Below are positions 1-51,463 of a DNA stretch of 64,000 bases, piece by piece. The notes under the pieces are model-generated. The model worked only from the letters and a program-made list of their open reading frames with translations. It was not told where the DNA came from and did not search any database. The translations under genes and the position numbers were made by a program. Origin of the DNA: an uncultured Solirubrobacterales bacterium (GTDB lineage Bacteria; Actinomycetota; Thermoleophilia; Solirubrobacterales; Solirubrobacteraceae); contig CAWCFD010000002.1 of NCBI GenBank assembly GCA_963794845.1, positions 890,960 through 954,959 on the forward strand, given 5' to 3'. Numbering within the stretch: position 1 is the first letter of the stretch; each line of letters begins with the position of its first letter.

Positions 1-231
1 GATACGAGCTCGGGTGACGGCGTCTTGGACTTCGCTGATCGCGGTGCGGATGCTCTCGATCTCCTGTAGGTGCTCGTCGGTCAGGGGGAGTACGTCTTCG
101 GTGTCGGATGCCGCGTTGATGCGGGCTTGCAGTTGGGCTAGGTCCAGGCCACGCTCGCGAAGGTCGGCTGCTAGCTGACCGGCGACTTGGGGATCGCGAC
201 GGTCGTCTGCGCTCGGGTCGGTGGCGGTCAT
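1..231 (-). CDS. hypothetical protein, N-terminal part only (runs off left edge; not in ORF track)
   Basis: Minus-strand open frame from ATG at 229-231 (MTATDPSADDRRDPQVAGQLAADLRERGLDLAQLQ...) to the window edge. It is co-oriented and tightly spaced with the next small genes. Confidence 0.35.
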   Translation of the reverse strand, partial: MTATDPSADDRRDPQVAGQLAADLRERGLDLAQLQARINAASDTEDVLPLTDEHLQEIESIRTAISEVQDAVTRARI

Positions 232-244
232 CGAGGCGGTTGGG

Positions 245-511
245 TTAGAAGCTGAGGGAGTGCTCGGCCGCGAGCTTCTCGGCGGTTGATTCCAGGGCGA
301 CGGTCTCGCTCGTGGGCTCGTCGGCGCCGTCGTAGAGGCGAGCCGTCCAGGGACCGCCGGGGCGGTCCTGAGAGATGACGGCGGTGTCGATCCCGAGGTC
401 GGCGCGGGTGTAGATGGTGGTGACTTGCCCGCCGTAGGCGAGGGTCTGGATCGCCAGTGTCCTGTCCATATGGTCCATCTCCGTGGCTCCCGTGGTGGTG
501 TACGTGCTCAT
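245..511 (-). CDS. hypothetical small protein (88 aa)
   Basis: ATG at 509-511 overlaps the stop of the 508..834 gene (ATGA coupling). The Arg-rich N-terminal extension of the 152-aa track ORF overlaps that gene and is rejected. Confidence 0.45.
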   Translation of the reverse strand: MSTYTTTGATEMDHMDRTLAIQTLAYGGQVTTIYTRADLGIDTAVISQDRPGGPWTARLYDGADEPTSETVALESTAEKLAAEHSLSF

Positions 512-834
512 GCGCCTACTCCGAGGACCATCTCCAGGCGACCGACGAGCTGTCGCTGCGCGGAGACTACGCCGCAGAGGCGGTCCAGTTCTGGCCCCTG
601 CCCCTGTAGCTCGCCGAGGTCGTTGACTGACAGGGTCGAGGGGTCGGTCTCGCGCGAGCGAGCGATGCTCGCCCGCAGGCGCTCCATCTTGTCGGCGATC
701 CACTCCGCCTGTGTATCGAGCTTCTCGAGCAGCCGGTCGTAGTCGCGCGAGGCGTCGCGGAGCAGGTCGGCCAGCCGGTCGGCGTCGGGGTTGATCGCGG
801 CGGCGAGCTCGGCGTGTGTAAGGGTCGCTGTCAT
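508..834 (-). CDS. hypothetical coiled-coil-like protein (108 aa)
   Basis: AAGGAG lies 6 nt upstream of ATG 832-834 (MTATLTHAELAAA...). The longer 121-aa start lacks an RBS. Confidence 0.5.
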   Translation of the reverse strand: MTATLTHAELAAAINPDADRLADLLRDASRDYDRLLEKLDTQAEWIADKMERLRASIARSRETDPSTLSVNDLGELQGQGPELDRLCGVVSAQRQLVGRLEMVLGVGA

Positions 835-891
835 TGTCGGCTCCTTCGTTGTTCGGGGGTGGTTCGTGCTCATGCCCCCATTATGCCTAGC

Positions 892-940
892 GCACTAGAT
901 GAAGTCAAGAGCACTAGACTAATCTTTAGCAAGTCTTTAG
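892..940. promoter_or_regulatory. AT-rich intergenic region with two pairs of short direct repeats (GCACTAGA x2, TCTTTAG x2)
   Basis: GCACTAGA at 892-899 and 911-918, TCTTTAG at 923-929 and 934-940. This is the only low-GC stretch between two minus-strand gene blocks, so it is a likely promoter/operator for the 834->1 genes. Confidence 0.3.
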
Positions 941-974
941 GCGGGGGTTGGCCGGGTGGCACGGGCCAACGCGC

Positions 975-1760
975 CTAGCGAGCCCAGATCGGCTGTGGCA
1001 CGGTGGTCACTCGGACTGCCTGTAGGGTCGCCGGGTCAAGGATGATCTCGTGCTCGCCACGGCCGTTGGTGTAGGCGAGCAGCTGCGACTTCGGAAGCCT
1101 GGTGGTCGCTAGGTAGCCTCGCCGGTCGGGGCTGGTGAGCGCGGCGCGATTGGCGAACCACTCGGCTCTTGATCGGCTCAGTGACCAGCTCGGCGCGCGG
1201 TAGCTCCCCGGTCGCGCGAAGCCTCGGTAGATCATGACCTCCTCGCCCAGCTCGGCGAGCGTCGCGCGGTCCGCGTTGTCCATCAGCCATCTCGCGCGGC
1301 CGGGCCGGTGAGCGGTGAGCGCTCCCAGCCACTGCTCCTGATCGTCGTGGAGGTTCTCGGTCCCAATCCAGATGCTGCCGAGCGCCTCCCAATACTCCTG
1401 GTCGCTCAGCCGCTCGCGGATGGAGAGGAATGCGCCGAGCCGGTAGGGCTTCTCGTGCAGCCATACGATCTTGTGCCAGTTGCGCTCCGCTTCGGCACGA
1501 CGGATTCCCTGCGTCTTTGTGCGGTACATCTCATTGGCGAGGTGTGCCATCGCGGGGAGGTAGGGCACCATGAACACGAGCGGCGCCTTCAGCACTTCTC
1601 CGAGCACCTCGATCTCGGCCAGGTACGGCACCAAGTCGGGATGAAGCTCGACCTCGTCGGCTCCGGCTTGCATCGTCGCTGCGCTCGTTTCGCTCTGGGC
1701 CATCGGCACACACATGTAGCTCGATCCGCCAGCGAGTTCAAGCCCTTTCGCCGGCGACAC
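975..1760 (-). CDS. ADP-ribosyltransferase-like (R-S-ExE) domain protein
   Basis: The C-terminal ~90 aa carry, in order, MIYRG ... SWSLSRSRAEWFA ... GRGEHEIILDP (Arg / S-x-S / E-x-E as in exotoxin-type mono-ARTs). The N-terminal half is unassigned and the start codon is uncertain. Confidence 0.5.
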   Translation of the reverse strand: MSPAKGLELAGGSSYMCVPMAQSETSAATMQAGADEVELHPDLVPYLAEIEVLGEVLKAPLVFMVPYLPAMAHLANEMYRTKTQGIRRAEAERNWHKIVWLHEKPYRLGAFLSIRERLSDQEYWEALGSIWIGTENLHDDQEQWLGALTAHRPGRARWLMDNADRATLAELGEEVMIYRGFARPGSYRAPSWSLSRSRAEWFANRAALTSPDRRGYLATTRLPKSQLLAYTNGRGEHEIILDPATLQAVRVTTVPQPIWAR

Positions 1761-1890
1761 GAACTGGCCCGCTGGTCAGACTGGCGTGGTGGAAAGCGGT
1801 TTCGTCGCTTTCATGGACGTTTATCGGGCCCCAGGCGATCATCAAAGTCCTGCTCCCCATCTGCGCACGGCACGCGCCATCGTCCCCGAG

Positions 1891-2640
1891 TCAGGGGTGG
1901 CTGAGGAGATCGGTTCGGGTAATGATGCCGCGCTTGATCGCCTCCTCGACCAAGCGCTCGCGGCGCCTCGCGGGGGGCTGGAGTTTCTCGTGCAAGTCCT
2001 TGAGTTCCGTGTTGACTAGGGCGACCGGGATCGAGAGCGCAGTGGCTATCTCAGCGGTGCTAGCCGGGCGAGCAGATGGATCTGGCCCGGCGAGTGGCCT
2101 GGCGAGGGAGACGAGGATCTCGCGCTGAAGGCGTGTCAGCTCGGGGGGTCGCGGTCTTGGTGGCCGGTCGGGTGTGGGCGGTAGCGGCGGGAGTTCTCGT
2201 CGTATCGCCTCAAGCGCCGCGTGCGCATTGTCGAGTGCGATCAGCTCGATTCCACGCCTGCTAAGCGCGCGACGCGTGTAGGGGGCTTGCTGACGGATTT
2301 TGGACTCGGCAGCTTCCGCGTAGGGCGGCAGTTTCAGGACGGGCCGCCACTCGGGGAGGCGTAGGCCCTGCGCGTGCCATCTAATCTCGAGCATCCTGCC
2401 CTGTTCGGTAAATGCGTCCTCGGGTAGCCACTCGAACACCTCGAACTTGCTGCTGCCATCAAAGAATCTCACGGCGATCCCCGCGCAGACAAGCTCCAGT
2501 GCGTTCGTAACGGAGGTTCCTTTGTTGTCCTTGAGTTCGCCAAGGACGACGCCTTCACGGGCGACGAAGAGATGGCAGTAGCTCGGGCGTCCGGAAAAGC
2601 CGCCGAACCGGAGGAGATACTCGTTCGGGTCTTCAGGCAT
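1891..2640 (-). CDS. hypothetical protein with Pro-rich linker and C-terminal HTH-like segment
   Basis: 249-aa ORF that overlaps the end of 2633..3235 by 8 nt (operon). It has PPLPPTPDRPPRPRPP, then STAEIATALSIPVALVNTELKDLHEKL. Confidence 0.5.
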   Translation of the reverse strand: MPEDPNEYLLRFGGFSGRPSYCHLFVAREGVVLGELKDNKGTSVTNALELVCAGIAVRFFDGSSKFEVFEWLPEDAFTEQGRMLEIRWHAQGLRLPEWRPVLKLPPYAEAAESKIRQQAPYTRRALSRRGIELIALDNAHAALEAIRRELPPLPPTPDRPPRPRPPELTRLQREILVSLARPLAGPDPSARPASTAEIATALSIPVALVNTELKDLHEKLQPPARRRERLVEEAIKRGIITRTDLLSHP

Positions 2641-3235
2641 CCGTGTACTCGTCGGCGCGTCGGCGCGGTTGTAGGTTCTTGAGATCGTCTAGCTGCTCCT
2701 TGGTCTCTAGGCGAAGACCGCCGAGTCGCAACGTTACGTGTATCGCCGGGAGCACCCGGCTATCGAGATCTGCCTTTGCATCGGTGCTCGATGGGCCTGC
2801 GTAGTGGGAGACCTTGGAGCCAGGGAGGCACTCGAGCCGGTGAGCCGACTGGCAGACCTCGTGGAGCCGGGTCTCGAGGTAGCCGCTCTCTGCGCTGTCG
2901 AACCCACGGCTGGGCCGGCGGACGAGGATCACTTGTCGCCACCAGTTCTCCTTGGCGGGTAGATGCTCGTCCACGCGCTCGAGCAAAGGCCGCGTCTGAG
3001 TCGTGCCTGGCCGCACGCACGCATCGCAGCCGGGGCTGTTGCTGGGACCACTGAGGACGTAGACACCCCCTACGCTCCAGAGTTCGGCCGGCAGGTCTTG
3101 CTTGCTCGCATAGGTCTCGCGGGTGCAGATCGCTGTCTCGATCTCAACTCCCTCGAACCGCACGAAAACCGGGTGCGTAGCGTCGGGCGGGAATCGAACG
3201 ATCGCCAGCGGAGGGCCGTCGCCTTGGGACCACAC
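2633..3235 (-). CDS. GIY-YIG-like nuclease domain protein
   Basis: Ordered pattern GVYVLSG ... VRPGTT ... ERVDEH ... WWRQVILV ... SGYLETRLHE resembles the GIY / YIG / R / E core of GIY-YIG (DUF4357-type) proteins. Confidence 0.4.
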   Translation of the reverse strand: MWSQGDGPPLAIVRFPPDATHPVFVRFEGVEIETAICTRETYASKQDLPAELWSVGGVYVLSGPSNSPGCDACVRPGTTQTRPLLERVDEHLPAKENWWRQVILVRRPSRGFDSAESGYLETRLHEVCQSAHRLECLPGSKVSHYAGPSSTDAKADLDSRVLPAIHVTLRLGGLRLETKEQLDDLKNLQPRRRADEYTDA

Positions 3236-3479
3236 CCACGCGACTCTAGCCCCCTCAGAAGCAGCTCGGATGGCTCGTAGATATCGAACGGCTGGCTATC
3301 GCCCGACGGACTGCCGTGCGCAGAGTCTCGGCAGCTGCCCTGGCACGTGGTCTGCGCATCGACACTCACGCTAGAACCAAGCAGAGCTGCGCGCGGCCGA
3401 CGAAGCGCTGCTGCTGATTTCCGAATTTGCCAGGCGCCCACAACGCCAACTGGGCCGGGGCGCGAGGGACGACCACCGC

Positions 3480-4535
3480 ATGGGAGCGGATCAGAAAGCT
3501 GCACGCAGAACGCTTCCTAACAGGCGAGTAGGCTCGTCGCTCGTGGAGCAGAGCCCGAAGAAGATACACGTCGTGACCCGCACCTACCTGACGGGCTGGA
3601 CCCTTAACGGATTGCTGCGGCCGGTCAGCGTGCGCTACGGCCCGCAGAAGCTCAAGACGCCTGCCGCGGTGGCATGGGAGCACGAATGGTGGGGGGCGGG
3701 AGCCCCGGCCCTCAACGAGGCGTGCGAGGAGGCGTGCGCCAAGCTTGAGAACTTGCTGCCGGACACGCTCGCTGCCGTCGAGGCTGACTGGCCACTCGAC
3801 ACGCCGACGACGGCCGTCGTCGCTGAACTCATGGCTCTGCATGTCCTTCGCACGCGGGCGTTCCAACAGTGGTTCACTCCTGTTCGGGATGCGTCGCTCG
3901 CCGAGTATCGTGATCGCTTCCCCGACGAGCAGTCATTTGAGCGATGGAAGCGAGACATGCAGACTGATCGGCGGCGCGCAGAACGTTTGCTCAGTGCGAT
4001 GAACAAGCTGAGCACGGTCCTCGGGTCCATGCATTGGTCTCTACTGCGCTTTGACGAGCCGCTGCTGATAACCGGAGATCAGCCGGTCTGCCCGGTGTCT
4101 CTTCCCACGACGGCGCCGGTGCAGCCGATCTCGGCGATGCCGGGCGCCGGCTGGCTCGATACATACGAGGTTAGGTTTCCATTGACCCCGCGCCTCGCGC
4201 TCCTTGCGACGTGGTACATGGGAACAGAGACCGAGCCGATTGCAGGCACCCGGGAGCACGCTGCGAACCTGAACGCGAGCGTTGCTCGCCAAGCATCCGA
4301 GCAGTGGTTCCAAACTCCGGCGTGCGAGCCAGCCTGGCCGGCTGAGACGGAGGGACCGTCACTCCTACTCCCGCTCGCTGCCGACATCCTTCCGGGTTAT
4401 TCCACGGGAAGCGCGGTTGCGTCCCCGCTTCGCAGCCGAACGAGGAAACACGCCGAAGACTTGATCGAGCTACAGGACCACAAGACGGTGATGCTGACCA
4501 GACCAGAAGCTCTATCGCCGTCGGGCGCCGGCTGA
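3480..4535 (+). CDS. DUF4238-like protein
   Basis: HVVTRTYLTGW lies near the N-terminus, followed by LHVLRTRAFQQWF and WSLLRFDEPLLITGDQPV, matching the DUF4238 pattern as I remember it. The true start may be internal. Confidence 0.55.
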   Translation: MGADQKAARRTLPNRRVGSSLVEQSPKKIHVVTRTYLTGWTLNGLLRPVSVRYGPQKLKTPAAVAWEHEWWGAGAPALNEACEEACAKLENLLPDTLAAVEADWPLDTPTTAVVAELMALHVLRTRAFQQWFTPVRDASLAEYRDRFPDEQSFERWKRDMQTDRRRAERLLSAMNKLSTVLGSMHWSLLRFDEPLLITGDQPVCPVSLPTTAPVQPISAMPGAGWLDTYEVRFPLTPRLALLATWYMGTETEPIAGTREHAANLNASVARQASEQWFQTPACEPAWPAETEGPSLLLPLAADILPGYSTGSAVASPLRSRTRKHAEDLIELQDHKTVMLTRPEALSPSGAG

Positions 4536-4728
4536 ACGGGTGGGCTAGCGGAGAGGCTGTCAAGGATCGCACGAGCGCGTGCGTCGATCGGAAGGTCGGG
4601 CATCATCTGCGACGCCCGAACGCATGCTCGGTTGCCCCGCTCTCGGCGAGCATATTGCTAGAGCTATGATCGGTCGGCGCGGGTGCAGAGACTCGACGCG
4701 GGTCCAATCCTGCGCCTAGCATGGCCTG

Positions 4729-5080
4729 GTGAGCGAGCAGGCAACACTGGCGGCTGCCGGACCACTCAGTGGTTCGGGCAACGAGCAGGGAACCGAGCTT
4801 CGCGCGCGTGTCGGTGCGTGGGTGGGGAGTGCCATCATCGCCGAGCGACCGCTCGACGAGGTCGGGCTGCCGGTAATCGGTGCCGTTGGAGTGGCGGTCG
4901 CTGCCGAGGGTGACGACGCAGTCGATGATCTCGTGGTTCCTCTGCACGACGGCGGGCGTGTGTTCATCCAGAGCAAGCTTCGCGCAGGACTGGCCCAACG
5001 AGAAGGCACTCCTTTCGCGAAGGGCGGTCGCCCAGTTCGCGAGCACGGTGTGTGCAGGCGTCCATGACGACGATCGACTG
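4729..5080 (+). pseudogene. decayed paralog of the N-terminal (nuclease-like) domain of the 979-aa NTPase
   Basis: GTELRARVGAWVGSAIIAE..DDAVDDLVV..GGRVFIQSK aligns with GSEFQARVAAFFGVAMLSE..FAAVDDVRL..GRVDLQAK of 5406..8345. The continuation (AVAQFASTV ~ ALGQFVNAF) appears only after a frame change, and no NTPase part follows. Confidence 0.45.
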
Positions 5081-5089
5081 GTGGGTCCT

Positions 5090-5330
5090 GGCGGTTATGT
5101 TGCAGGTGGCGCAAACCCAGCGCGCTTGACGGTCATATGCCCGACCCTTCCACTCGCGTATCTCGCGCACCTCTCCTTCACGGTCAGAGAGATTGACAAT
5201 TGAACGCTGCTCGGAATCAGCGAACCGACCAGCCCAGCTGCCGACTACGTGCTCTTTGGTGAGCGGTGTTCGCCCGCAGAAGATGCACGTGCGAGGTGTC
5301 TGGCTGAGGCCAGCCTAGCGGCATTGCCGG
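5090..5330 (-). pseudogene. HNH/zinc-finger nuclease-like N-terminal remnant
   Basis: Start-less minus frame TCIFCGRTPLTKEHVVGSW ... ARWVCATCN (CxxC..EH..CxxC). Similarity is lost after the second Cys pair. Confidence 0.3.
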
Positions 5331-5405
5331 AGACGGTGCTCGGCTCAGAACGAGGAGCCCAGTGCAGAAAAGCGAAAATGGATCGCAGCCCGGCAGGCAG
5401 AGGAA

Positions 5406-8345
5406 GTGAGTAAGAATCATTCGGTCATGGGCACTTCTGGAAGACTTCGCTCAAGTGCGTCCAAAATGGGCGCCTCGGGTGGCGCCGCGGCATCGGCGGG
5501 CTCAGAGTTCCAGGCGCGTGTGGCCGCGTTCTTCGGGGTGGCGATGCTGTCCGAGCAGCTTGCCGTTGCCCGGTTTGATCTGCAGGAGGGGGTGCGCGTC
5601 GAGGCAGTGCGCTGCGAGCAGTTCGCCGCGGTCGACGATGTGCGCTTGGCGACCTCTGAGGCGGGCCGTGTCGACTTGCAGGCGAAGAACCGAGTGACTG
5701 CGAGTAAAGGCGAGCGGTCGCCTCTTGCAGGCGCGCTGGGACAGTTCGTCAACGCATTCCTCGACGCGCGTGATGGGGTCGACCCGCGCGGCGCATTGAG
5801 CAAACAGCGCGACCGTCTCGTGCTTGCGTGTGGACCCACCAGCTCGGCTTCGGTGCGCCGAGCGCTGCCGGCTCTGCTCGAACGCCTGCGCGAGGACCCA
5901 CCGGCGAGCCCCGATGAACTGACGTTGAGGAACAAGGACGAGCGGACGATCTGGCCGCTCTTGCTGATGCACCTGCGGCGTGTGTTCGCGGCGCGCACGG
6001 ACTCAGACCCGACGCCGGCGGAGCTGACCGAGCTGCTGTCGCTCATTCGGGTTCGTGAGTTCGAGTTCGACGGTGCCGGGCGGGACACCGAGGCGGCGAA
6101 GACGGCGCTCGCCTCGACCGTGCTCGCTGAGCCTGCGCAGGCCGAGCTTGCGTGGCAGCAAGTGGTGGCGTTGATGCTAAACGCAGCCTCCGGGCAGCGG
6201 GGCCTACGCCGCGAGGCGCTTGCGCAGAGGCTTGCTGGTGCTGGAGTGCAGATGCTGGCAGCCCCCAGCTTCCGAACCGACGTCGAGCGCTTGCGCAGCG
6301 AGACCGAGCGCAGCCGGGCGGTGCTACGTCGCTTCGGCGCGATCGAGCTGTCCTCGGGGGCGGTGAAGATCACCCGCTCCGTCGCGGCGGCCGCGCGCGC
6401 CCGCGCAGACGAGGCTCCGTGTCTGGTGATCTCGGTGCCCGGCGGCGGCAAGAGCGGCGTCGTCAGCGACGTGGTCGAGGCGCTGCTTGGTGACGCCCAA
6501 GACGTCGTTGCCCTGGCTGCTGACAGTTACAAGGTGGCTGACGAAGCTGAGCTTGCCGAGCGGCTGGGCCTGGAGCACCGCTTGGCCGATGTGCTCGCGG
6601 CCTGGCCGGGGGAGCGTAAGGGCGTGCTAGTGATCGACGGGTTGGACGCTGCGCGCGGAGGCGATGGGCTCGCGGTGTTCACGTCGCTCATCGAGACCGT
6701 TGCCGCGCGCGACGGACGCTGGACGGTGCTCGCGTCGATCCGCAGCTTCGACCTCCGCTACAACCCTCGCTTGCAGGAAGCATTCAGGCAGGGCGCGGGC
6801 GCGCTAGAGCTGGTGGACTCCGAGTTCGCCGGCACCCGGCACCTACTCGTGCCGGAGCTAGATGCGGAGGAGATCAGCCAGGCCGCCGCGCGAATCCCGC
6901 GGCTGGCTGAGCTGCTCGACGGAGCGCCGGAGGATCTGCGTCAGCTGGCGCGAAATCCGTTCAACCTGGCCAGGCTCGCCGAGCTGCTGGAGGCGGGTGC
7001 TGCTAGCGACGAGCTACGCCCGCTGCGCACGCGCCTTGAGCTATTGGAGGTCTACTGGAAGCATCGCGTGCTGTCACCGGCTGACGGCGCCGACAACCGT
7101 GTGCGGCTGGCACGAACGCTGTGCGATACAGCGACCCGAGCGCCTGCCCTGTTCGCTGTGCGTGCCGATGTGGCCACCGGCGAAGAAAACGATGCAGCGA
7201 TCCGCGACCTGCTCGGCTCGGGTGTGCTGGTCGAGGCCCAGAGCCAGACGGGTGCGGACACCCTTGCGTTCTCCCACCATGTCCTGTTCGATTATGCGGT
7301 CGCACGGCTGATGCTCCGCGTCGACCGGCTTCAACTGGCAGAGCTTGTCCGCGCGCGTCCTGAGCTTGCGCTGGTGGCAAGACCGAGCTTCACACTGCAC
7401 TTCCAGTACCTGTGGGAGCAACAGCGCGAGATGTTCTGGACGCTCACGCTTGAGCTGTCGGGAGACGCGTCGCTGCCATTGCTCGGAAGGATCGTGGCGC
7501 CAGCCGTCGCCGCCGATGCGGCGTCTGCCGATGATCTCGATCCGTTGATCGGTGCTCTCAGCTCCGGTGGCGAACGCCGGGAGCACGCACTGGCCGCGCT
7601 CGTGCATGTGGTCGGTGCGGCGCTCGCCGGCGGCAGCGACGGCCGCCCGCTGCAAAAAGCCAGCGTCCAGGTTTGGGCGAGCTTCGCCGACCGGCTAAGC
7701 GAGCATCTCGACGATCACATCGCCACGCAACTCCGGATACTGACCTGGGGGCTGATCGCGGAGCGCGAGCGACTAGGGGATGACGAGCTGGCGGCGGTGG
7801 GGCGAGTCGGCAGGCGCCTGCTGCGGCGAGCGCTCGACAACGAGCCCTATCGGTTCGACCTCGTCTACGTGGGCCTCGACGCGGTCGCTGCAACCTACGC
7901 GACAGACCCGCAGGGGTCTCGGGATCTACTCGGCCGGTTCGTCGCGCCGGAGAGGATGGCGAGGCTGGGCTGGCAGGAGCTTAGCTGGGTGATGGACGCG
8001 CTGTTCACCCTCCGGCGGGAGGAGCCGGAGCTTGTCGCGCAGCTGTATGCAAGTGCGTTCGCCGCGCCGGAACCCGACGGAACCGCAGTGCCGATGGGCG
8101 GCCCGGTGACGACGCTGATCTCCAACCGAGGCCAGGATTTCAGAGTCGCGCTTACGAACCTGGCCGAACGTTTCCCCGCGTTCTTGAAAGATGCTCCCGA
8201 GGCTGCGGTGGACGCGTTGATCGAGGTGTGCCGCGCCACCGGCGAGCAACGGTCCCTCGTCGCCGAAGCCCCTGAACGTGAGCTGCGCTGGCAAGGGCAG
8301 ACCGGCACGGTGATCGACGCCTTCAGTGTCGGGTTGGAACTGTGA
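5406..8345 (+). CDS. nuclease-like N-domain + NACHT/STAND-like P-loop NTPase + helical C-region (979 aa)
   Basis: N-terminal E..DD..QxK pattern (EQFAAVDDVRL..GRVDLQAKN), Walker A VPGGGKSGV, Walker B VLVIDGLDAARG, and a long Leu/Ala-rich helical C-terminus. A GTG/ATG start cluster lies at 5406-5470. Confidence 0.75.
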   Translation: MSKNHSVMGTSGRLRSSASKMGASGGAAASAGSEFQARVAAFFGVAMLSEQLAVARFDLQEGVRVEAVRCEQFAAVDDVRLATSEAGRVDLQAKNRVTASKGERSPLAGALGQFVNAFLDARDGVDPRGALSKQRDRLVLACGPTSSASVRRALPALLERLREDPPASPDELTLRNKDERTIWPLLLMHLRRVFAARTDSDPTPAELTELLSLIRVREFEFDGAGRDTEAAKTALASTVLAEPAQAELAWQQVVALMLNAASGQRGLRREALAQRLAGAGVQMLAAPSFRTDVERLRSETERSRAVLRRFGAIELSSGAVKITRSVAAAARARADEAPCLVISVPGGGKSGVVSDVVEALLGDAQDVVALAADSYKVADEAELAERLGLEHRLADVLAAWPGERKGVLVIDGLDAARGGDGLAVFTSLIETVAARDGRWTVLASIRSFDLRYNPRLQEAFRQGAGALELVDSEFAGTRHLLVPELDAEEISQAAARIPRLAELLDGAPEDLRQLARNPFNLARLAELLEAGAASDELRPLRTRLELLEVYWKHRVLSPADGADNRVRLARTLCDTATRAPALFAVRADVATGEENDAAIRDLLGSGVLVEAQSQTGADTLAFSHHVLFDYAVARLMLRVDRLQLAELVRARPELALVARPSFTLHFQYLWEQQREMFWTLTLELSGDASLPLLGRIVAPAVAADAASADDLDPLIGALSSGGERREHALAALVHVVGAALAGGSDGRPLQKASVQVWASFADRLSEHLDDHIATQLRILTWGLIAERERLGDDELAAVGRVGRRLLRRALDNEPYRFDLVYVGLDAVAATYATDPQGSRDLLGRFVAPERMARLGWQELSWVMDALFTLRREEPELVAQLYASAFAAPEPDGTAVPMGGPVTTLISNRGQDFRVALTNLAERFPAFLKDAPEAAVDALIEVCRATGEQRSLVAEAPERELRWQGQTGTVIDAFSVGLEL

Positions 8346-10309
8346 TCTACCGCGACGATCAGATGATGCTCGAGGCGTTCAGGGAGCGACTGATCGAGCT
8401 TGCCGGCGCGGGCGACAGCGAGGCGGTGCAGACGCTGCTCACGCCCCTAGCGGGCCGGGCTGTGGACGCGTCGTTGTGGCGGCAGATCCTTCAGGTCGCC
8501 GCCGAGCACCCGCCTGTGCTCGCGCCACTGCTGGCCGAGCCGCTTGCGTCGCCAGCGATCCTGGGAGCCATGAACACGAACGGCGCTGCAGCGGCTGCGC
8601 TCGACGCGTGCTTCCCGTTTCTCGGCAAGCGCGAGCGCGAGGCGGTCGAGACGGCGATCCTTGCTCTCGCCGTCGAGGACGAGTGGGACCAGCATCGGCG
8701 CGACCGTGTGCTGCTCGCGTTGCCGCAAGAGCTGCTTGTCACTGTCGCGGCGCGCGAGCAGCAGGCCCAGGCGGGCTCCCGGCACGAGGCCCGCGAGCGC
8801 CGCGAACGGGAAATGTATGAGCGCGCGGTCGATGAACACGGACAGCACGCGGCGCCGTCGCCACACTCTGACCCCGAGGACGCGATCCTGTCGAAGTTGA
8901 TCGGACGCGTGCAGATCGCGCAGCCGAGCACCGAAGCCGTGGACTGGGATGAGCTGGCGCAGGCGATGCGCGAGTTGAAGGCCCACCTCGATGGCTCGAA
9001 CGGTGTCAGCCAGCTGCGCTCGGAAGCGGGTGGCTGGCTCACGCACGCCGCCGTCGCGACAGCTGCGCGGACTCCGCTCCCAGCTGACGAGGCGACAAGG
9101 GTCGCAGGCGAAGTGCTGCTCGCAGCCAGCGATGACCCACGCCCACATCAGGAGGAGGACCCAGACAGCTTCGACAAGTTCCCGACCGGCGAGTTCCCGT
9201 CTGGCCGCACCGACGCGGCGCGCGGTCTTCTTGGACTTGCCCGCGACCCGGATCTGCTGCCCGATGGCGGGCTCGCCGCGATCGAGCAAATGGCAAACGA
9301 TGTCGCGGCAGCGGTGCGGCTCCCGGTTGCCGAGAATCTGCATCTCCTCGCAGTGAGCGATGAGCAGCTCGCGTGGCGATTGGCCGAGAAGATGACCGCC
9401 GATCCGCGGGCCGCAGTACGCCTGGCGCTGCAGCGCTCGCTCGCCAGCCTGTGCGCGCGTGACCGCGACCGCGCGCTCGACCTCGTGCTCGCGGTCTGCC
9501 GTGCGGAGGCCGCCCGTGAGCAGCCGAACGAGGGCGTGCTCGAGCACTTCAGCCGCCTGCTCCTCGAATCGTGGGTGTGGCAGGGCACATCGCAGGGCAA
9601 AGCGATGCTGGACGAGTTCCTGGCCGACCTGCCCCGCTACGCACACGCCGCGGCGCGCCTGCCCGGAGCGCTGCGAGCCCCCACCACCCACGGCGAAATC
9701 GGCGCAAACGACCTTGAGGCGGACGCCGTACGGGCGCGCGCGATCGACGCGTTCGCCCGCCTCGCGGAAGCCGGCCTGGCCTCACTGGCTGCCTCGTGGG
9801 ACGCCTATCGCGATGCGGCCGCCAAGGGCGAGCCTCTGGACGAGGAGCGCCTGAAGGCGGCCGGCAAGGTTGTCGACCACTGCTGCATGGAGCTGTATTT
9901 CGCGTCCGGCGCGTACCGTGACGGCCAGCACAAGATCAGCGACGCCAAGCGCAGGCGCTTCTACGGCGAGGCGCACGTGCTGATCGATGCGCTGTGCGAG
10001 GCCCCGATACCGCACGCTGCCCACCACGTCATGGAGACCCTCGAGGCTTCGATTGAGTTTGACCCACGCGGAGTGCTGATCCGCAGCGGGCGGTTGATGC
10101 AGGCCGCCCACGACTGGCAGTACGACACAGACGGCCAGGCGCTCAGCCTGTTTGTCAACATGACCCAGCGCTACCTGGCAGAGCACCGCGAGCTGCTCGC
10201 AGACGCCGAATGCCGCGCAAGCCTGCTGCGGTCCCTGGAGCTATTCGTGATGGCTGGCTGGCCTGCCGCGCGGCGTCTCATCTACCGTTTGGACGAGGCG
10301 TTTCGCTAA
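8342..10309 (+). CDS. all-helical repeat (HEAT/ARM-like) partner protein (655 aa)
   Basis: The GTG start overlaps the upstream TGA (GTGA at 8342-8345). The composition is Ala/Leu/Arg-rich with repetitive helices and no catalytic motif recognised. Confidence 0.65.
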   Translation: MIYRDDQMMLEAFRERLIELAGAGDSEAVQTLLTPLAGRAVDASLWRQILQVAAEHPPVLAPLLAEPLASPAILGAMNTNGAAAAALDACFPFLGKREREAVETAILALAVEDEWDQHRRDRVLLALPQELLVTVAAREQQAQAGSRHEARERREREMYERAVDEHGQHAAPSPHSDPEDAILSKLIGRVQIAQPSTEAVDWDELAQAMRELKAHLDGSNGVSQLRSEAGGWLTHAAVATAARTPLPADEATRVAGEVLLAASDDPRPHQEEDPDSFDKFPTGEFPSGRTDAARGLLGLARDPDLLPDGGLAAIEQMANDVAAAVRLPVAENLHLLAVSDEQLAWRLAEKMTADPRAAVRLALQRSLASLCARDRDRALDLVLAVCRAEAAREQPNEGVLEHFSRLLLESWVWQGTSQGKAMLDEFLADLPRYAHAAARLPGALRAPTTHGEIGANDLEADAVRARAIDAFARLAEAGLASLAASWDAYRDAAAKGEPLDEERLKAAGKVVDHCCMELYFASGAYRDGQHKISDAKRRRFYGEAHVLIDALCEAPIPHAAHHVMETLEASIEFDPRGVLIRSGRLMQAAHDWQYDTDGQALSLFVNMTQRYLAEHRELLADAECRASLLRSLELFVMAGWPAARRLIYRLDEAFR

Positions 10310-10431
10310 CTCGCGCCAGTTTCCTCTGCGATCGCCCTTTGCCGAGTTCGCATTCAACTGCAGGCGCGTACCGCCATCGCCACTCAGGCCCGCCCCCAAC
10401 TACGCCCAAAAGCCCTCCCAAGACCGACCGT

Positions 10432-10573
10432 CAAACCCTCAACCAACGTCGCCCGACTCGCGCCAAATCCGCGCCAGTTCAAGCGCGGATCGTGCGGTTT
10501 CGGGCGGTTAACAGCGGTCCCGCGGGGCTGGACACCCGCAGCCGCCAACCGGCCGAATGCGGCTCAACCATGC
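10432..10573. repeat. ~140-bp non-coding repeat, copy A (copy B at 24349..24489)
   Basis: Shared blocks: CAAACCCTCAACCAAC, TCGCGCCAAATCCGCGCCAGT..AGCGCGGATCG, GGCGGTT..CAGCGGTCCCGC, GCTCAACCATGC. The CCGCGC/GCGCGG stem is kept while its loop differs. Indels break every reading frame. Confidence 0.6.
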
Positions 10574-10587
10574 GGAAAACGGCTCAG

Positions 10588-10679
10588 GAAAGCCAAGAAT
10601 CCGGGCGCTGGCAAAAGGCGCGACTTTTCGGCCGGTGGGATTTCAAGACCGGTGCATTCAACCGCTCTGCCACCCTTCC
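10588..10679 (-). pseudogene. truncated tRNA-Ser(UGA)-like gene (intact 5' half only)
   Basis: The minus strand reads GGAAGGG TG GCA GAGCGGTTGAA TGC A CCGGT CTTGAAA, position-for-position like the 5' half of the genuine tRNA-Ser at 27367. After the loop the return strand is offset by 4 nt, and no GTTCGAATC T-arm or matching 3' acceptor strand follows. Confidence 0.45.
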
Positions 10680-10700
10680 GTGTGATCCACAAGGCTAGTC

Positions 10701-10823
10701 GATCCGTTGCGCTCGCTCACCCGGCGCTACGAGCGGCTCGCCCACACCCTCGACGAGCGGCTCGGGCTCAAGCCCGCGCGCGAGACGCGGATCATGTACC
10801 GTGACCTGCTCGGGCAGGGCTGA
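10701..10823 (+). pseudogene. C-terminal remnant of a SARP/BTAD-type activator
   Basis: Start-less frame DPLRSLTRRYERLAHTLDERLGLKPARETRIMYRDLLGQG* is the typical last helix pair of a bacterial transcriptional activation domain. There is no upstream coding continuation. Confidence 0.4.
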
Positions 10824-10834
10824 GGCGCCGGGGC

Positions 10835-10863
10835 TTGACAGTTGCGCATGGACCTGCTATGAA
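10835..10863 (+). promoter_or_regulatory. sigma70/SigA-type promoter of cassette copy 1
   Basis: TTGACA (10835-10840), a 17-nt spacer, then TATGAA (10858-10863). An equivalent TTGACA-N17-TATAAA sits at 41836-41864 in copy 2. Confidence 0.55.
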
Positions 10864-10869
10864 TAGACA

Positions 10870-11111
10870 GTCGCCGTCTGCGGGTGCAGATGGGGGCAAG
10901 AACATAAGACTGGGTTTGGGTCGATCCTCGTGGTCGACGGCAAGCGCTTTGGACGGGACCGTGGAGAGGGACCGGGTCAGAACAGAGAGGGAGTTGTAGT
11001 TCGCGTGGTTTCATTGGGGAATAGCGCAGTTGAGAGGTCGTGCGCGCCTGGCGGGTCCTTTATAGGACGTGTCAGCGTCGCTGACACGTCTCTCTCTCTC
11101 TCTCTCTCTCT
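10870..11111 (+). ncRNA. conserved structured non-coding domain (candidate sRNA or riboswitch-like leader), copy 1
   Basis: ~240 nt downstream of the promoter share long identical blocks with 41870..42110: CATAAGACTGG, GAGAGGGACC, GAGAGGGAG, TGTAGTTCGCGTGGTTTC, TTGGGGAATAGCGCAGTTGAGAG, GGCGGGTCCTTTATAGGACG. Stop codons and indels exclude a shared ORF. The domain ends in a palindrome plus CU tract. Confidence 0.5.
11089..11111 (+). repeat. (TC)11T dinucleotide tract
   Basis: Hand-counted 23 nt, the same length as the tract at 42088..42110. Confidence 0.9.
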
Positions 11112-11486
11112 GCGACTCAAGCGCTAGGCCCCTCCGTCCGGCCTTTCGGCCGGCCGGGATCCCCGAAGGGGGATATGGGGAGGGGCATGCCCTCCTCCGT
11201 CCGGCCCTAACGGGCCGTCCGGGCTCCCCCGAAGGGGGTAAGGGGAAGGCTGGGCTCCTCTGCGATCCTCGCCGCCGCGTAAGCCGGTCGGCGTCCTGCC
11301 CCCGTAGGGGAGGGGGGCTCTCTTGTCCTCTTAAGACGCGCGCGCAAGGCGCGCTGTCTGCCTTTCACGATCGTGGGACGGTCGCTGGCGACCCGGCCTC
11401 CGTTCTGCCTGCGCGGGCTTTGCCCCTGGGCGCCATCTCCCTACCGGGCGTCCAGGGGTCCGCGCGATCCGGGGGGGCATGGTGAG
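11112..11486 (+). promoter_or_regulatory. long GC-hairpin-rich 5' leader upstream of the regulator gene
   Basis: Tandem modules of two hairpins, for example CCGTCCGGCC-TTTC-GGCCGGCCGG followed by ATCCCC-GAAG-GGGGAT, occur twice, with GCGCGC-GCAAG-GCGCGC further downstream. The last ~70 nt (CTGGGCGCCATCTCC..GGGCGTCCAGGGGTCCG) are conserved with copy 2. Confidence 0.45.
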
Positions 11487-12515
11487 ATGGCGGGTGGGCG
11501 TCCAGCGAAGCGTCCCGGCGCGCGTGCGGCGCAGCGATACAACGGCGCTGTCCGCGAGCAGTTGGGTGAGCTTCAGCGCGCGCGGATCATCGGCGCGACG
11601 TTCGAGGTCACAGCGCAGCGGGGGGCGGGCAACGTGACCGTCGCGCACGTCGTGGAGCGCTCGGGCGTGTCGCGGCGCACGTTCTACGAGCATTTCTCCG
11701 ATCGCGAAGACTGCCTGCTGGCGGCGTTCGAGCACGCGCTGGCGCTCGCCTCGGAGCGTGTCGTCCCGGTCTATGAAGCCGAGCAGGGTTGGCGTGAGCG
11801 GATCAGGGCGGGTCTGCTCGCGCTGTTGGCCTTCTGCGATGAGCAGCCGAGCGTCGGGCGCTTGCTCGTGTGCGAGTCGCCGGCCGGTGGTCCGAGGGTC
11901 GATGAGCGCCGCCGGGACGCGATCGCGCTGCTCACCCGGATCGTGGATCGGGGGCGCGGTGAGACCAAGAGCGACACGCTCTCCCCGCTCGTGGCGGAGG
12001 GGACCGTCGGCGGTGTGCTCGCGGTTATCCAGGCGCGGTTGCTGGAATCGAAACGCACCCCGCTGCTTGGCCTGACCAACGAGCTGATGAGCATGATCGT
12101 CATGCCATATCTGGGCGCCTCGGCGGCCAGGCGCGAGCTCGACCGTCCAGTGCCCGCACCGGCGGGCGTCCAGCGCGACGGCGCGCTGCTCTCAGACCCC
12201 TTCAAAGACACCGGCATGCGCTTGACCTACCGCACGGTGCGCGTGCTGCTCGCCGTCTCCGAGCACCAGCGCGCCTCCAATCGCACGATTGGCCAGACCG
12301 CCGGCATCACAGACCCGGGCCAGATATCCAAGCTGCTCGGCCGCCTGGCGCGCCTCGGCCTGATCGAGAACACCGGCCTCGGCCCCGGTCAGGGAGCACC
12401 CAACGCGTGGACCTTGACCGACAAGGGCCGGCAGATCGCCGAGAACATCCGCGCCAACACCAAAGGCAGCCAAAGCACCCTGAAGCGCACAAGCCACGGA
12501 GCCAGCGAGCGATGA
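11487..12515 (+). CDS. TetR-family N-terminal HTH + C-terminal MarR-like winged-helix fusion regulator
   Basis: TVAHVVERSGVSRRTFYEHFSDREDCLL is a TetR_N HTH. The C-terminal LTYRTVRVLLAVSEHQRASNRTIGQTAGITDPGQISKLLGRLARLGLIENTG..NAWTLTDKGRQI is MarR/wHTH-like. Start set at MAGGRPAKR, conserved with copy 2. Confidence 0.7.
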   Translation: MAGGRPAKRPGARAAQRYNGAVREQLGELQRARIIGATFEVTAQRGAGNVTVAHVVERSGVSRRTFYEHFSDREDCLLAAFEHALALASERVVPVYEAEQGWRERIRAGLLALLAFCDEQPSVGRLLVCESPAGGPRVDERRRDAIALLTRIVDRGRGETKSDTLSPLVAEGTVGGVLAVIQARLLESKRTPLLGLTNELMSMIVMPYLGASAARRELDRPVPAPAGVQRDGALLSDPFKDTGMRLTYRTVRVLLAVSEHQRASNRTIGQTAGITDPGQISKLLGRLARLGLIENTGLGPGQGAPNAWTLTDKGRQIAENIRANTKGSQSTLKRTSHGASER

Positions 12516-12674
12516 GCCGCCGCCCACGCATCCTCGCTCCCACCGGCCGGGACGCCACACCAAAGCTTGTGTCTCACTGTGAAGTAGCAAGTAAACCTAA
12601 ATCAATCTCATTCTTACATCAATCTGTATCTGTGGACCCACGCGCTAGGCGCGCTTTCAGGAGGGGATGGCTCG

Positions 12675-15600
12675 ATGAACGCTCGTAGGCTCTATTTGGC
12701 GGTTGTGGCGTCGTTGTGCGCGCTGGGCGCCGCGCTTGCCGTGAGTGTGGCTCCCGCGGGGGCCGTGCTGCCGGCCCAGTTCGGTGAAGCGGGTGAACTG
12801 GCCGGTCAGTTCGAGGGGCCTACGGGTATCGCGGTGGATCAGACCAGTCAGGATGTGTATTTGATGGATCGTGGGAACCAGCGGGTCGATGAGTTCACTG
12901 GTGAAGGGCAGTTCCTGCGCGCGTGGGGGTGGGGTGTTCACAACGGTGCCGACGAATTTCAGATCTGTGGTCCTGGGGCGTCCCCGCCGACCAAGAGGTG
13001 TCAGGATGGAATTCCGCGACACGACCAGGGCGGCGTGGCGGACGGGGCGGGCCAGTTTGATTATCCGGAAGGTAACGGGGTTATCGCGGTAGATAACGCG
13101 TCGGGGGATCCGTTGGACATGTCCGTGGGGGATGTGTATGTAGCCGATATCAGAAACGGCCGTGTTGAGAAGTTCGGTCCGAACGGCGAATTCCTGGCGG
13201 CGTTGACCGAACATTTGGGTCGGCCGGAGTCGATCGCGGTCGGTGCGACGGGGACGCTGTTCGTAGGTGAAGCCGCCAGTGTTCAGGAGTTCTCCTCCGA
13301 AGGTACCTACGAGATGACCTTGGCGTTGGAAGGCGGCTCCGGGTCTGTCAAGGGTCTCGCGGTCGATGCGGCGGGCGATCTGATCGTCAACGCCGAAGAC
13401 GGCAGTGTGCGTGAGTACAGCGAATCGGGGACACTGCTGCAGACGCTCGTGGCCGAAGGCGCCAGCTCGATCGCGCTGGGGTCCCACGAAGAACTGTTCG
13501 CCAGCGTCGGCCGTGAATCAATCAGAATGTTGGAGTTCGCGCCCTCCGGTGAAGAGATCGCGAGCTTCGACACCACCGTCAGCAACTCAAAAGAAATACC
13601 AGGGCGCTATGGCCTTGCTTTCGGCGATGCGCTCGGCGGGCTATACGTCGCCACCCAGATTTACGAGCCCGAAACGAATAGCACGACAGACGATGTTGGT
13701 GTGGTGGCGCCGCCTCTAGGTCGGGAGCCTTATCTCCCTTCGGTTTCGGTTAGCGAAGTACAGCCGACTGGCGCGACGCTGCAAGCGAGAATCGACCCGG
13801 AGAATCACGCGACCAGCTACCGTTTCGAATACGGTCAAACGGAAGCGTACGGGTCGAGCGTGCCCGTGCCGGACGGCTCTCTGGCGGCGAGCTTCGAAGA
13901 AGAAACGGTCGCGCTGCCGATCGCGAAACTCCGTGCCGGCACGACCTACCACTACCGGCTGGTGGCCTCCAGCGAATGCGAACCGGAAGCACACCCCGGC
14001 ATACAGTGCCCCGTGCACAGCGAAGATCGCACGTTCTCGACGCTACCGGCCGTCTCGATCGACAGCGAGTACGCCACCGCGGTCGCCTCCACGAGCGCCA
14101 CGCTCGGCGCGCAGTTTAACCCGTTGGGCGCACCGGCGACGTACACCATCGAATACGGAGCCACGACGGCCTACGGTCACATGACGTCGCCGGCGTCGCT
14201 GAGCCCTGTCTCAACGGATGTGGGCGTGAGCGCGCATGTCGATGGGCTGGAACCCGACACGCTCTACCATTATCGTGTCGTCGCGCACGACGAACGCGAA
14301 GGGCAGACCTATACGGTCGAAGGGGCCGACGAGGCGTTCACGACTCAGCCGGCCGGCGCGCCGTTCGCACTGCCAGACGGCCGTGCTTGGGAACAGGTCT
14401 CGCCGGTGAACAAGCACGGAGCGCAAATCTTCGAACTGCCGCGCGCAGAAGAAAATGTCTATCCGATGCAGGCGTCGTTGGCTGGTGACGCGATCGCATA
14501 CACGGCGGGCACTCCAACCGAATCGAATCCGACGGGGTACCTCGCGTTTACGCAGGTGCTTTCCAGGCATGGCGTGGACGGGTGGACATCGCAGGATCTC
14601 GCGACGCCCAATGCATTGCTGGCGGGCGCTGAAATCAATTACATGGAATTCCCGATCTTCTCCGAAGATCTGTCCGGGGCGCTGGTTGAGCAGCTGGGGG
14701 CGGACGCTCCGCTGCTCTCACCGTTGGCGAGTGAATTGACGCCGTACGTGCGCCGGCAGAGCGCCTGTGAATCGCAGGCGAGTGCGAGCGAATGCTACAC
14801 GCCGCTGATCACCGGCAAGCAGGGGGACGCCGACGTGCCGGCAGGCACACACTTCGCCTACCCGGTTCCCAGCGAAATCGACCAAGAATTGAATCTTGAA
14901 GGGGCGACCGGCGATCTCAGTCATGTGGTGTTCGGATACGAGCACCACCAGAGCAGGTATTATGAGGAACCTAATCATCCTACGCCTGAATCGGCTTCGC
15001 TGACCGAAACGCCCGCGTCGACGGGCGGGTTGTATGAGTGGTCGGCGAGCGAACCGCCCGCGAAGCGGCTGCGGCTGGTGAGCGTGCTTCCCGACGGCAA
15101 AGCAGCGGAAGAAGATAGCGAACTCGGGGGAGATGTAGGCGGTGTTCTTGGGCTGCACACCAATGGTCGTGGGGCAATCGCGGCAAACGGTTCGCGCATA
15201 TTCTGGAGCGGGAGTAGGGGCAACGGAGAATCGCTTCACGTCTCGCTTTATATGCGCGATTTTGCCAGGGGCGAAAAGGGCGAAACGCTTGAAATCGGCG
15301 AACCGGAACCGGGGGAAGAAACGGAAGCCGGCAGTGCGCTCTATCAGTCGACTGCGAGCGATGGGTCGAAGGTCTTCTTCACCGATAGCGGGCGCCTGAT
15401 CGAAGGCGCGAGTAACGACAGTTTCTACGAGTGTGAAATCGTCGAAGTGGCCGGGAAGCTGAAGTGCAGGTACACGGATCTGACCCCGAGCGGCGGCGCG
15501 ACGAAATTGGAGTTGGGCTCCAACGCAGACGGCTCCTATGTGTATTTCGCGACGACGAAGAGCGAGGCGCTATTGCAGGATAATCTGTACGTACGTCACG

Positions 15601-41869: not shown

Positions 41870-42110
41870 CATGCCTCGATCCGAAAGGGATCGGGGAAGA
41901 CATAAGACTGGTTTGGGCCGGCCCTGTGGCTAGCCGCAAACGTTTTAGACGGGGAACCTTGGGAGAGGGACCAAGTCGCAACTGAGAGGGAGCTGTAGTT
42001 CGCGTGGTTTCTTTGGGGAATAGCGCAGTTGAGAGTCGTTGTGCGCGTGGCGGGTCCTTTATAGGACGCGTCAGCGGCGCTGACGCGTCTCTCTCTCTCT
42101 CTCTCTCTCT
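41870..42110 (+). ncRNA. conserved structured non-coding domain, copy 2
   Basis: Homologous to 10870..11111 (same blocks). It ends in the palindrome ACGCGTCAGCG-G-CGCTGACGCGT (42066-42088) and the (TC)11T tract. Confidence 0.5.
42088..42110 (+). repeat. (TC)11T dinucleotide tract
   Basis: Hand-counted 23 nt, identical in length to 11089..11111. Confidence 0.9.
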
Positions 42111-46613: not shown

Positions 46614-46619
46614 TCAGGG

Positions 46620-48054: not shown

Positions 48055-48069
48055 GGAGAGGACGAACCA

Positions 48070-51370: not shown

Positions 51371-51463
51371 GTTCGCGAACGAGATCAGCCGGTGGCTTGC
51401 GCTGCACGCGAGGAGCCCGACGCCCCGGATCGTGCCCCACGCGGCGGGTGCTACGCTGCGCGT

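Follow-up and report, generated by a model that had tools for sequence, protein, structure and literature searches.

Two described systems bear most directly on the pair of overlapping genes considered here, which occupies positions 5406 to 10309 of a 64,000-nucleotide stretch of DNA from an uncultured Solirubrobacterales bacterium (GCA_963794845.1, contig CAWCFD010000002.1; "the window" below means this whole stretch). The first is SeAvs7 (PDB 9N00, 9N01, 9YIX), in which a Cap4 nuclease and a STAND NTPase are joined to a helical sensor of two lobes (Lee et al., Nature 2026, PMC13581612). Once this sensor has bound the major capsid protein of the phage and the EF-Tu of the host, the protein tetramerises and cuts DNA; the C-lobe of the sensor autoinhibits both the NTPase and Cap4, capsid binding clamps the lobes, and the tetramerisation is ATP-dependent (PMC13581612). 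A bilobed sensor of this type is the family-defining domain of Avs7 and is common to Dsr1, the numbers reported being 3,272 verified Avs7 and 9,097 sensor-bearing proteins, and "split proteins" are named in the same paper only within its Methods (PMC13581612). The second system is PDC-M54 (components A and B), a phage-defence candidate (PDC) in PADLOC; the PDCs are 145 predicted candidates, proposed from their embedding in BREX, DISARM, type I restriction-modification and Hma loci (Payne, Hughes, Fineran & Jackson, bioRxiv 10.1101/2024.01.29.577857). A literature search by the name "PDC-M54" returned no papers.

Seen against this background, the pair is a split-gene version of a catalogued, Avs7-related STAND family, and not an unrecognised system. 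It is likely to be an antiviral STAND receptor of Avs type whose gene has undergone fission, belonging to the PDC-M54A family and distantly related to Avs7. The pair had originally been picked out by a reading of the letters and translations (the original prediction in what follows), which described a nuclease-NTPase protein with its repeat sensor encoded separately and did not recognise the two as a named system; on that last point it was mistaken, as both genes turn out to be halves of PDC-M54A, which is usually one polypeptide.

A single protein family in two pieces

The first open reading frame (ORF1, 979 amino acids) matches the PADLOC profile PDC-M54A (PDLC04700) over positions 2–958 of 1657 with E 1.4e-211, and the second (ORF2, 655 amino acids) matches positions 977–1657 of the same profile with E 1e-87, colinearly with the first, and the split point lies at profile position 966|975; running PADLOC on both proteins, as the original prediction had proposed, thus gave a PDC-M54A match for each. 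The GC content of the sequence is 65–69%, and it is because of the strength of these two matches that the ORFs can be taken as real genes and not as chance frames in high-GC DNA. PDC-M54A was also the sole PADLOC match for 44 of 44 sensor halves tested, and Pfam and NCBIfam scans of ORF1 and ORF2 gave nothing useful. All of the coordinates and lengths originally reported, and the GTGA overlap between the two frames, were reproduced (see Table 1), and every one of the motifs quoted at the time (GSEFQARVAAFFG, AAVDDVRL, GRVDLQAKN, VPGGGKSGV and VLVIDGLDAARG) was found in the translation.

Scanning genomes yielded 425 confirmed relatives; 80 loci were fetched, and in about 65 of these 80 a single ORF of about 1,650 amino acids spans profile positions ~4–1640. 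The family is spread over Solirubrobacterales (the nearest, at 62–66% identity), Acidobacteriota, many Proteobacteria, Chloroflexota, Bacillota and several archaea. Because the fused relatives align straight through the junction (reading ...VIDDYSLSWDL-GSTGM-AYRDEETML... where the window has ...VIDAFSVGLEL, a stop, and then V-IYRDDQMML...), the cut can be placed in a short Gly/Ser linker.

This arrangement is not peculiar to the window. The five nearest homologs of ORF1 (P0001–P0005, at 97, 94, 85, 74 and 71% identity) are all 941–973 amino acids long, as against mostly ~1,590–1,700 amino acids for relatives at 66% identity or less, and a partner ORF of 646–655 amino acids follows directly in four independent loci (five assemblies, L001–L005, drawn from JGI, ENA and Logan). 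The survey of co-occurrence that had been suggested therefore found an intact ORF2 partner beside ORF1 in each of L001–L005. The ratio of nonsynonymous to synonymous substitution (dN/dS, by the Nei-Gojobori method) is 0.17–0.33 for ORF1 and 0.17–0.32 for ORF2, and since these values hold at dS up to 1.0–1.45, both halves must have been under purifying selection for a long time after the fission. In the deepest pair the dN of ORF2 is about twice that of ORF1. The two-ORF layout with its overlapping stop and start, one of the central features of the original prediction, is thus conserved in relatives with both ORFs under purifying selection.

At the DNA level, homology between the window and four of these relatives is limited to the two ORFs, starting at 5407/5476 and ending at 10308/10314 (for L001 the identity is 97% over 5444–10314), and the flanks differ from relative to relative: a TrwC relaxase with flagellar genes, a type II CBASS, or an MmeI-type methyltransferase with an SNF2 helicase and a TIR gene. 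As homology stops at the ORF borders and the flanks differ each time, the two-ORF cassette is a self-contained mobile unit, and it carries no other partner. A scan of the locus for flanking repeats found nothing informative.

The junction itself repays closer description. The sequence TGTGA is invariant at the junctions of the five split loci, as is the in-frame ATG downstream of it; the 4-nucleotide overlap is present in L001, L002 and L003, and in L004 and L005 the gene callers picked the equivalent of ATG 8366, giving a 20-nucleotide spacer. The start of ORF2 is accordingly ambiguous, being either GTG 8342 or this invariant ATG, and so is that of ORF1, which may be GTG 5406, ATG 5427 or ATG 5466 (sequence conservation sets in near residue 24, and the model described below has a predicted local distance difference test score (pLDDT) below 50 for residues 1–27). 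No promoter-like or terminator-like sites were found between the ORFs in a scan of 5000–10800 that included intrinsic terminators. A conserved overlap on the same strand, with neither terminator nor promoter intervening, is what would be looked for in a translationally coupled pair, and coupling is predicted here from these features.

Splitting also recurs elsewhere in the family. When ORF2-type proteins were used for an exhaustive profile search, 1,519 cluster representatives were recovered (485 with E <= 1e-30), and the top 150 were mapped on the full-length profile. More than a third (58/150) start before position 60 and are fused proteins with the nuclease N-domain, and a further 12/150, starting at 260–279, are fused with unrelated N-termini in front. 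Stand-alone C-terminal pieces with true N-termini make up about 27/150, with starts at 757–761, 774–779 and 801–812, and a further 7/150, starting at 938–981, where the window's cut lies or close to it, likewise stand alone. The commoner fission hotspot is therefore at profile position ~757–812 (roughly Avs7 residues 685–740), some 200 residues upstream of the cut seen in the window; pieces that stand alone there include proteins P0090–P0092 and P0102. Stop/start overlaps are found at this main hotspot too, namely GTGA in L044, GTGATG in L049 and ATGA in L085, L049 being the cultured Solirubrobacter taibaiensis KCTC 29222. In a rough nearest-neighbour test (as distinct from a phylogeny) the nearest neighbours of split clusters were often fused proteins, and this suggests several independent fission events in the family. 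It may be added, as a separate matter, that not every split of a family member in the public data is a true fission, frameshifts being seen in L006, L042, L056 and L065.

Domains of the two products and their counterparts in Avs7

ORF1 gave a confident AlphaFold2 (AF2) model (pLDDT 88.2, predicted template modelling score 0.75). In a 53-sequence family alignment there is no variation at D77, D78, K94, G346, G348, K349, D411, D414, R417, R446 and H624, and conservation is at least 90% at E71 and Q92. The N-terminal domain has the topology alpha-beta-beta-beta-alpha-beta in the model (H28-48, E65-70, E79-83, E88-94, H106-122, E137-142), with D77/D78 preceding strand 2 and Q92-x-K94 lying within strand 3. 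When its profile was compared with the PDB the best match was AbpA/HamA 8zue (E 0.005), with the Cap4 domain of SeAvs7 coming next (E 1.2), and the Pfam Cap4_nuclease model was reached by 2/37 members of the family (E 0.025) and not by the window protein. The similarity is thus remote, but motif, order and modelled topology are consistent with a nuclease of Cap4/HamA type, of predicted activity. The PD-(D/E)xK N-terminal domain that had been proposed from the translation is to that extent borne out: its core topology is present in the model, and D77/D78 with Q92-x-K94 align to the Cap4 domain of Avs7 and, weakly, to HamA/AbpA.

In the NTPase the STAND signature is complete, with Walker A G346-G-G-K349-S, Walker B D411-G-L-D414, the sensor-1 residue R446 and H624 in the winged-helix domain (WHD), and the model shows the strands of the nucleotide-binding domain (NBD) followed by a helical domain and then a winged helix. 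The top Foldseek matches of the ORF1 model were Avs4 (1e-10) and NLRC4, NLRP9, NOD2 and NLRP3 (1e-8 to 1e-7), while relatives of ORF1 match Pfam AAA_16, NPHP3_N and nSTAND3 in the NTPase. The P-loop, NACHT-like NTPase originally described is therefore upheld, being a STAND fold by Foldseek in which K349, D411, R446 and H624 align to SeAvs7. Some relatives (P0093, P0124, P0195, P0085) carry HEAT+CHAT, caspase (Peptidase_C14), trypsin-like or CHAT effectors in place of the nuclease, on the same NTPase-sensor chassis; shuffling of N-terminal effectors in this way is typical of Avs/NLR-like immune receptors.

The model of ORF2 is also confident (pLDDT 89.2) and consists entirely of helices, its Foldseek matches being karyopherins and PP2A-A; its most conserved segment is the C-terminal helix, with F635, G639, A643, L646 and L650. 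The "long helical C-region" of ORF1 and the all-helical character claimed for ORF2 thus both hold, as a HEAT/ARM-type solenoid, and the structural check proposed at the outset (Foldseek on AF2 models) returned a STAND fold in ORF1 and this solenoid in ORF2. It should be noted that the list of 50 Foldseek matches does not contain 9N00 for either model; Foldseek is informative here for fold class only.

It was comparison of profiles that brought out the relation to Avs7. Searched against the PDB, the family profile matched SeAvs7 (9n00/9n01/9yix) far above all others, at E 1.2e-21, the NTPase stretches giving 8e-7 and 1e-7. A profile for Avs7 was built from 24 intact Avs7-type genes found in a metagenome scan, a homolog search with a SeAvs7 fragment having given only short fragments. 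Aligned to it by hhalign, the family gave a probability of 99.7% and E 9.8e-27 over 1180 colinear columns (family 13–1382 against Avs7 20–1325 of 1536). In the numbering of the Avs7-type protein L088, D77/D78 and Q92/K94 correspond to D45/D46 and Q60/K62 of the Cap4 active site, the Walker A residue K349 to K291 (SeAvs7 K291/292), the Walker B residue D411 to D358, the sensor-1 residue R446 to R395, and the WHD histidine H624 to H546 (SeAvs7 H545); in the sensor, the invariant R326 of ORF2 corresponds to R1249, which is likewise invariant. On this sequence comparison the family is best described as a distant relative of Avs7 with the same architecture, and not as a proven Avs7 member. Two Avs7-type genes are fragmented and apparently decaying, in L086 (8001-12572) and in L087 (7403-11398, Yersinia nurmii); one of them adjoins RHS toxin and Imm58 genes, the other a phage-type integrase.

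The same alignment locates the cut. ORF1 positions 700, 940 and 979 map to Avs7 619, 818 and 855, and ORF2 residues 1–389 align to Avs7 860–1311. Because L979, the last residue of ORF1, falls at 855 and ORF2 residue 1 at 860, the cut lies inside the sensor, at about Avs7 residue 855–860, and not at the border between NTPase and sensor; about 340 residues of sensor helices remain on ORF1. The claim that the sensor is encoded as a separate ORF must be amended in this sense. The contacts reported for SeAvs7 with EF-Tu (999–1059) and with the capsid protein (1204, 1289, 1361) map to the ORF2 side.

A working model and its alternatives

By analogy with SeAvs7, a divided receptor of this kind might work as follows. 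Coupled translation would yield ORF1 and ORF2 in near-equimolar amounts, and the two products would reassemble non-covalently into a full receptor. In a resting, ADP-bound state the distal sensor on ORF2, including its conserved C-terminal helix, would hold the NTPase and the Cap4-like nuclease off. Binding of a conserved phage protein (for which the capsid protein is a precedent only) might then clamp together the proximal sensor on ORF1 and the distal sensor on ORF2, and with this clamping the NTPase would become free to exchange ADP for ATP and to oligomerise. Nuclease domains at the N-termini could thereby be assembled to cut DNA, and the infection would be aborted.

Several caveats count against reading the pair as a divided Avs-type receptor. 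By eye, no clear Shine-Dalgarno sequence precedes either candidate start of ORF2 in the window, and the usual partner, PDC-M54B, was not found among the window's neighbours or by tblastn against the whole window and L001–L007. PDC-M54 is itself a predicted, "guilt-by-embedding" candidate. The likeness of the N-domain to Cap4/HamA is, by sequence, marginal (E 0.005–1.2). The homology of the sensor to that of Avs7 is partial, the hhalign alignment ending at about residue 389 of ORF2 and leaving the last ~265 residues unaligned. Further, with a profile of the ORF2 half the generic HEAT proteins PP2A-A and INTS4 score at least as high as SeAvs7, and the 44 sensor halves touched neither the Dsr1 nor the Avs models of PADLOC. 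For these reasons a capsid trigger for the pair is a guess.

A rather different working of the same two proteins can be envisaged, though it is considered unlikely: ORF2 could be a detachable inhibitor and sensor acting in trans, in the manner of an antitoxin, and ORF1 an intrinsically active nuclease-NTPase in the manner of a toxin. The trigger would then be the loss, titration, sequestration, degradation or under-translation of ORF2 in infection, instead of or beside ligand clamping (guard logic). Several observations fit: the C-lobe of SeAvs7 autoinhibits NTPase and Cap4 and the equivalent region is on ORF2, the best-conserved part of ORF2 is that C-terminal helix, fission recurs and persists, and dN at the deepest comparison is about twofold higher in ORF2 than in ORF1. 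However, neutral fission followed by tight reassembly accounts for the same data, and the fact that ORF1 never occurs without ORF2 in the examined loci is what both models predict. Were such a rewiring real, sensor halves would be exchangeable between receptors, and the fissions at two sensor linkers would be adaptive, not neutral.

That the pair might have no immune function at all, its STAND NTPase serving regulation or housekeeping and its place near defence genes being incidental, is very improbable. It is true that many clades of STAND proteins lie outside defence (Lee et al. 2026, PMC13581612), and the function of PDC-M54 is only predicted, but such a role sits badly with the exchange of a nuclease-type effector for caspase, CHAT or trypsin-like domains in relatives, with the patchy spread over bacterial and archaeal phyla, and with flanks that are unrelated even where the cassette is 97% identical. 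The same may be said of the company the genes keep (CBASS, the MmeI-type methyltransferase with SNF2 helicase, TIR, PDC-S14 and DUF4238) and of their homology to Avs7, which has been validated experimentally.

There is still less to be said for the view that a single-base indel, real or artefactual, recently broke a fused PDC-M54A gene and left ORF2 dead, which seems hardly credible. One ORF is certainly the family norm, the scattered, non-recurrent frameshifts already mentioned (mostly in long-read metagenome-assembled genomes) are likely assembly errors or pseudogenes, and decayed Avs7 copies do occur elsewhere, as in L086 and L087. Against this, the identical break is present in four independent loci and five assemblies at 71–97% identity, which are not one clonal sequence (dS >1); ORF2 is intact in all split loci, with dN/dS 0.17–0.32 at dS up to 1.45; the junction differs from that of fused relatives by a small deletion and a start codon, which is more than a slip; and several stand-alone ORF2-type clusters are known. 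Sequencing error and pseudogene formation were therefore excluded, on the conservation of the split and the dN/dS values.

Programmed -1 ribosomal frameshifting (or some other recoding), which would yield a full-length fused protein and make the two ORFs a matter of genomic appearance only, would suit the -1 frame of ORF2, open from 8282 and so giving a 60-nucleotide overlap window, and the conserved junction, but it was rejected as highly unlikely, since no X-XXY-YYZ slippery heptamer was found by eye in 8282–8343 (a region that varies among the split loci), a start codon lies at or next to the stop in every split site (GTGA, ATGA, GTGATG), which is the signature of coupled reinitiation, L004 and L005 are called with an ATG start and a 20-nucleotide spacer, and the end of ORF1 and the start of ORF2 both align to the fused sequence without any shifted read.

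Returning to the likely reading of the pair as a divided Avs-type receptor, what it would mean can be stated briefly. Antiviral STAND/NLR receptors are viewed as one-chain proteins whose sensor has two tasks, detection of the invader and restraint of the effector, and this family gives natural split versions, kept by selection and cut at defined sensor linkers. If the halves do reassemble, they would allow an in-trans test, with the SeAvs7 structures as precedent, of how the NTPase and nuclease are held in check by the distal lobe and later set free, and the mixing of sensor halves for specificity. The PDC-M54A candidate is now tied to the characterised Avs7 family, which provides a concrete hypothesis for its mechanism and trigger. 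The locus in itself is an ordinary defence-island STAND gene.

Setting of the locus and comparison with known systems

The features of the pair and of its immediate neighbourhood are collected in Table 1.

Table 1 Features of the split PDC-M54A locus and its upstream neighbours, in window coordinates (aa, amino acids; nt, nucleotides; HD1, helical domain 1).
Feature	Coordinates	Strand	Description
PDC-S14-like gene	2633-3235	-	PADLOC E 2.5e-20
DUF4238 protein	3480-4535	+	PF14022 E 8e-13; weak DUF4238-Pers match
Relic of diverged second Cap4/HamA-like N-domain	4726-5019	+	~95 aa; keeps VDD..QSK; without NTPase after it
ORF1	5406..8345	+	GTG start; 979 aa; nuclease effector (predicted), STAND NTPase and proximal sensor; N-terminal 59% of a PDC-M54A / Avs7-like protein
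Nuclease core, Cap4/HamA-like PD-(D/E)xK (predicted)	5475..5900	+	aa ~24-165: GG..G.EFQ helix, E71, D77/D78, Q92-A-K94
STAND NTPase module	6396..7325	+	aa ~331-640: NBD, HD1, WHD with H624
Proximal sensor on ORF1	7326..8342	+	aa ~641-979; helical repeats, terminal beta-hairpin 957-970; ~ Avs7 residues 560-855
Fission junction GTGA	8342..8345	+	ORF1 stop and ORF2 start share these nt; corresponds to short Gly/Ser linker of fused relatives
ORF2, distal sensor	8342..10309	+	GTG start; 655 aa; frame -1 relative to ORF1; all-alpha HEAT/ARM-type solenoid; ~ Avs7 residues 860-1523
Alternative ORF2 start ATG	8366..8368	+	In-frame, 24 nt 3' of GTG; GATG invariant in split-locus alignment

The PDC-S14-like gene, the DUF4238 gene and the pair form a small defence island, and the defence-island-like setting for which the original prediction had argued is evident here and, through CBASS, methyltransferase/SNF2 and TIR genes, beside relatives as well. 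Two of the neighbours it had named can be confirmed, the DUF4238-like gene by its Pfam match and the decayed paralog of the N-domain by its 33–36% identity (family HMM positions 7–93; blastp E 4e-7, 36%; tblastn E 2e-5, 33%). The latter is probably what is left of an M54A-type gene that formerly occupied this site, and its presence suggests that a defence hotspot has undergone turnover here. The GIY-YIG-like and ART-like neighbours, on the other hand, could not be substantiated, Pfam giving no such match at E<=1 for the ORFs scanned (245-11485), and nor could the truncated tRNA: ARAGORN reported tRNAs only at 27367 and 33552, and an Rfam scan of 1-13000 at E<=1 was empty.

Some features of the wider window may also be recorded. 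Two very large adjacent ORFs, 12675-16535 (+) and 16478-20179 (+), occupy a stretch of lower GC (0.62–0.65); the first (1286 amino acids) has NHL, PhoD_N, purple-acid-phosphatase-N and fn3 domains, and the second (1233 amino acids) is without a Pfam match. An IS110-family transposase (DEDD_Tnp_IS110 + Transposase_20) lies at 21401-22489 (+). Farther on, a block at ~42000-52000 has a GC of 0.61–0.65, as against ~0.70 in the next block, and contains a 1045-amino-acid ORF without a Pfam match (48070-51207) and a PD40-repeat ORF (46456-48054); this may be another acquired region.

As to how the pair compares with what has been described, the closest correspondence is with PDC-M54 itself, since ORF1 and ORF2 together cover the A profile end to end. 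The differences are that the A component consists here of two overlapping ORFs and elsewhere of one polypeptide of ~1,600–1,700 amino acids, and that the B partner, which adjoins A in part of the family, is missing both from the window and from its clade. PDC-M54B is a conserved protein of ~480–505 amino acids, encoded directly beside fused A in about 30 of 85 loci (e.g. L009:12926-14440 and L075:12809-14233, identified at E 1e-228 and 1e-188 respectively); it is without a Pfam domain, carries an ExK-like motif ("LIVETKRP") and is rich in Cys towards its C-terminus.

With HamA/AbpA (Hachiman DUF1837) and Cap4 (DUF4297) the N-domain shares the GG..G..FQ helix followed by D...Q/E-x-K on a PD-(D/E)xK core, and ORF1 has a weak PADLOC match to HamA (E 0.03); however, the likeness is marginal and extends over ~70 residues, and the domain appears here as a STAND effector rather than with a helicase partner. 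Avs4 (8DGF), NLRC4, NLRP3, NOD2 and bNACHT have in common with the pair the NBD-HD1-WHD fold, the DGxD Walker B and the order effector, NTPase, repeats, but they are single polypeptides whose sensors are built of TPR or LRR units in place of the HEAT/ARM-like units found here, and in sequence they are not closely related to it (for Avs4 the sequence-profile match is at E 0.07).

SeAvs7, finally, shares with the pair the order of a Cap4-type nuclease, a STAND NBD-HD1-WHD module and a long helical sensor, as well as effector swapping at the N-terminus, which has been described for Avs7 and is seen in the window's relatives. It differs in that identity is only ~15% (SeAvs7 fragments match PDC-M54A weakly in PADLOC, at E 2e-5 to 1e-4), in that its capsid trigger and EF-Tu cofactor are no more than candidates for the pair, and in being a single chain where the window has two.

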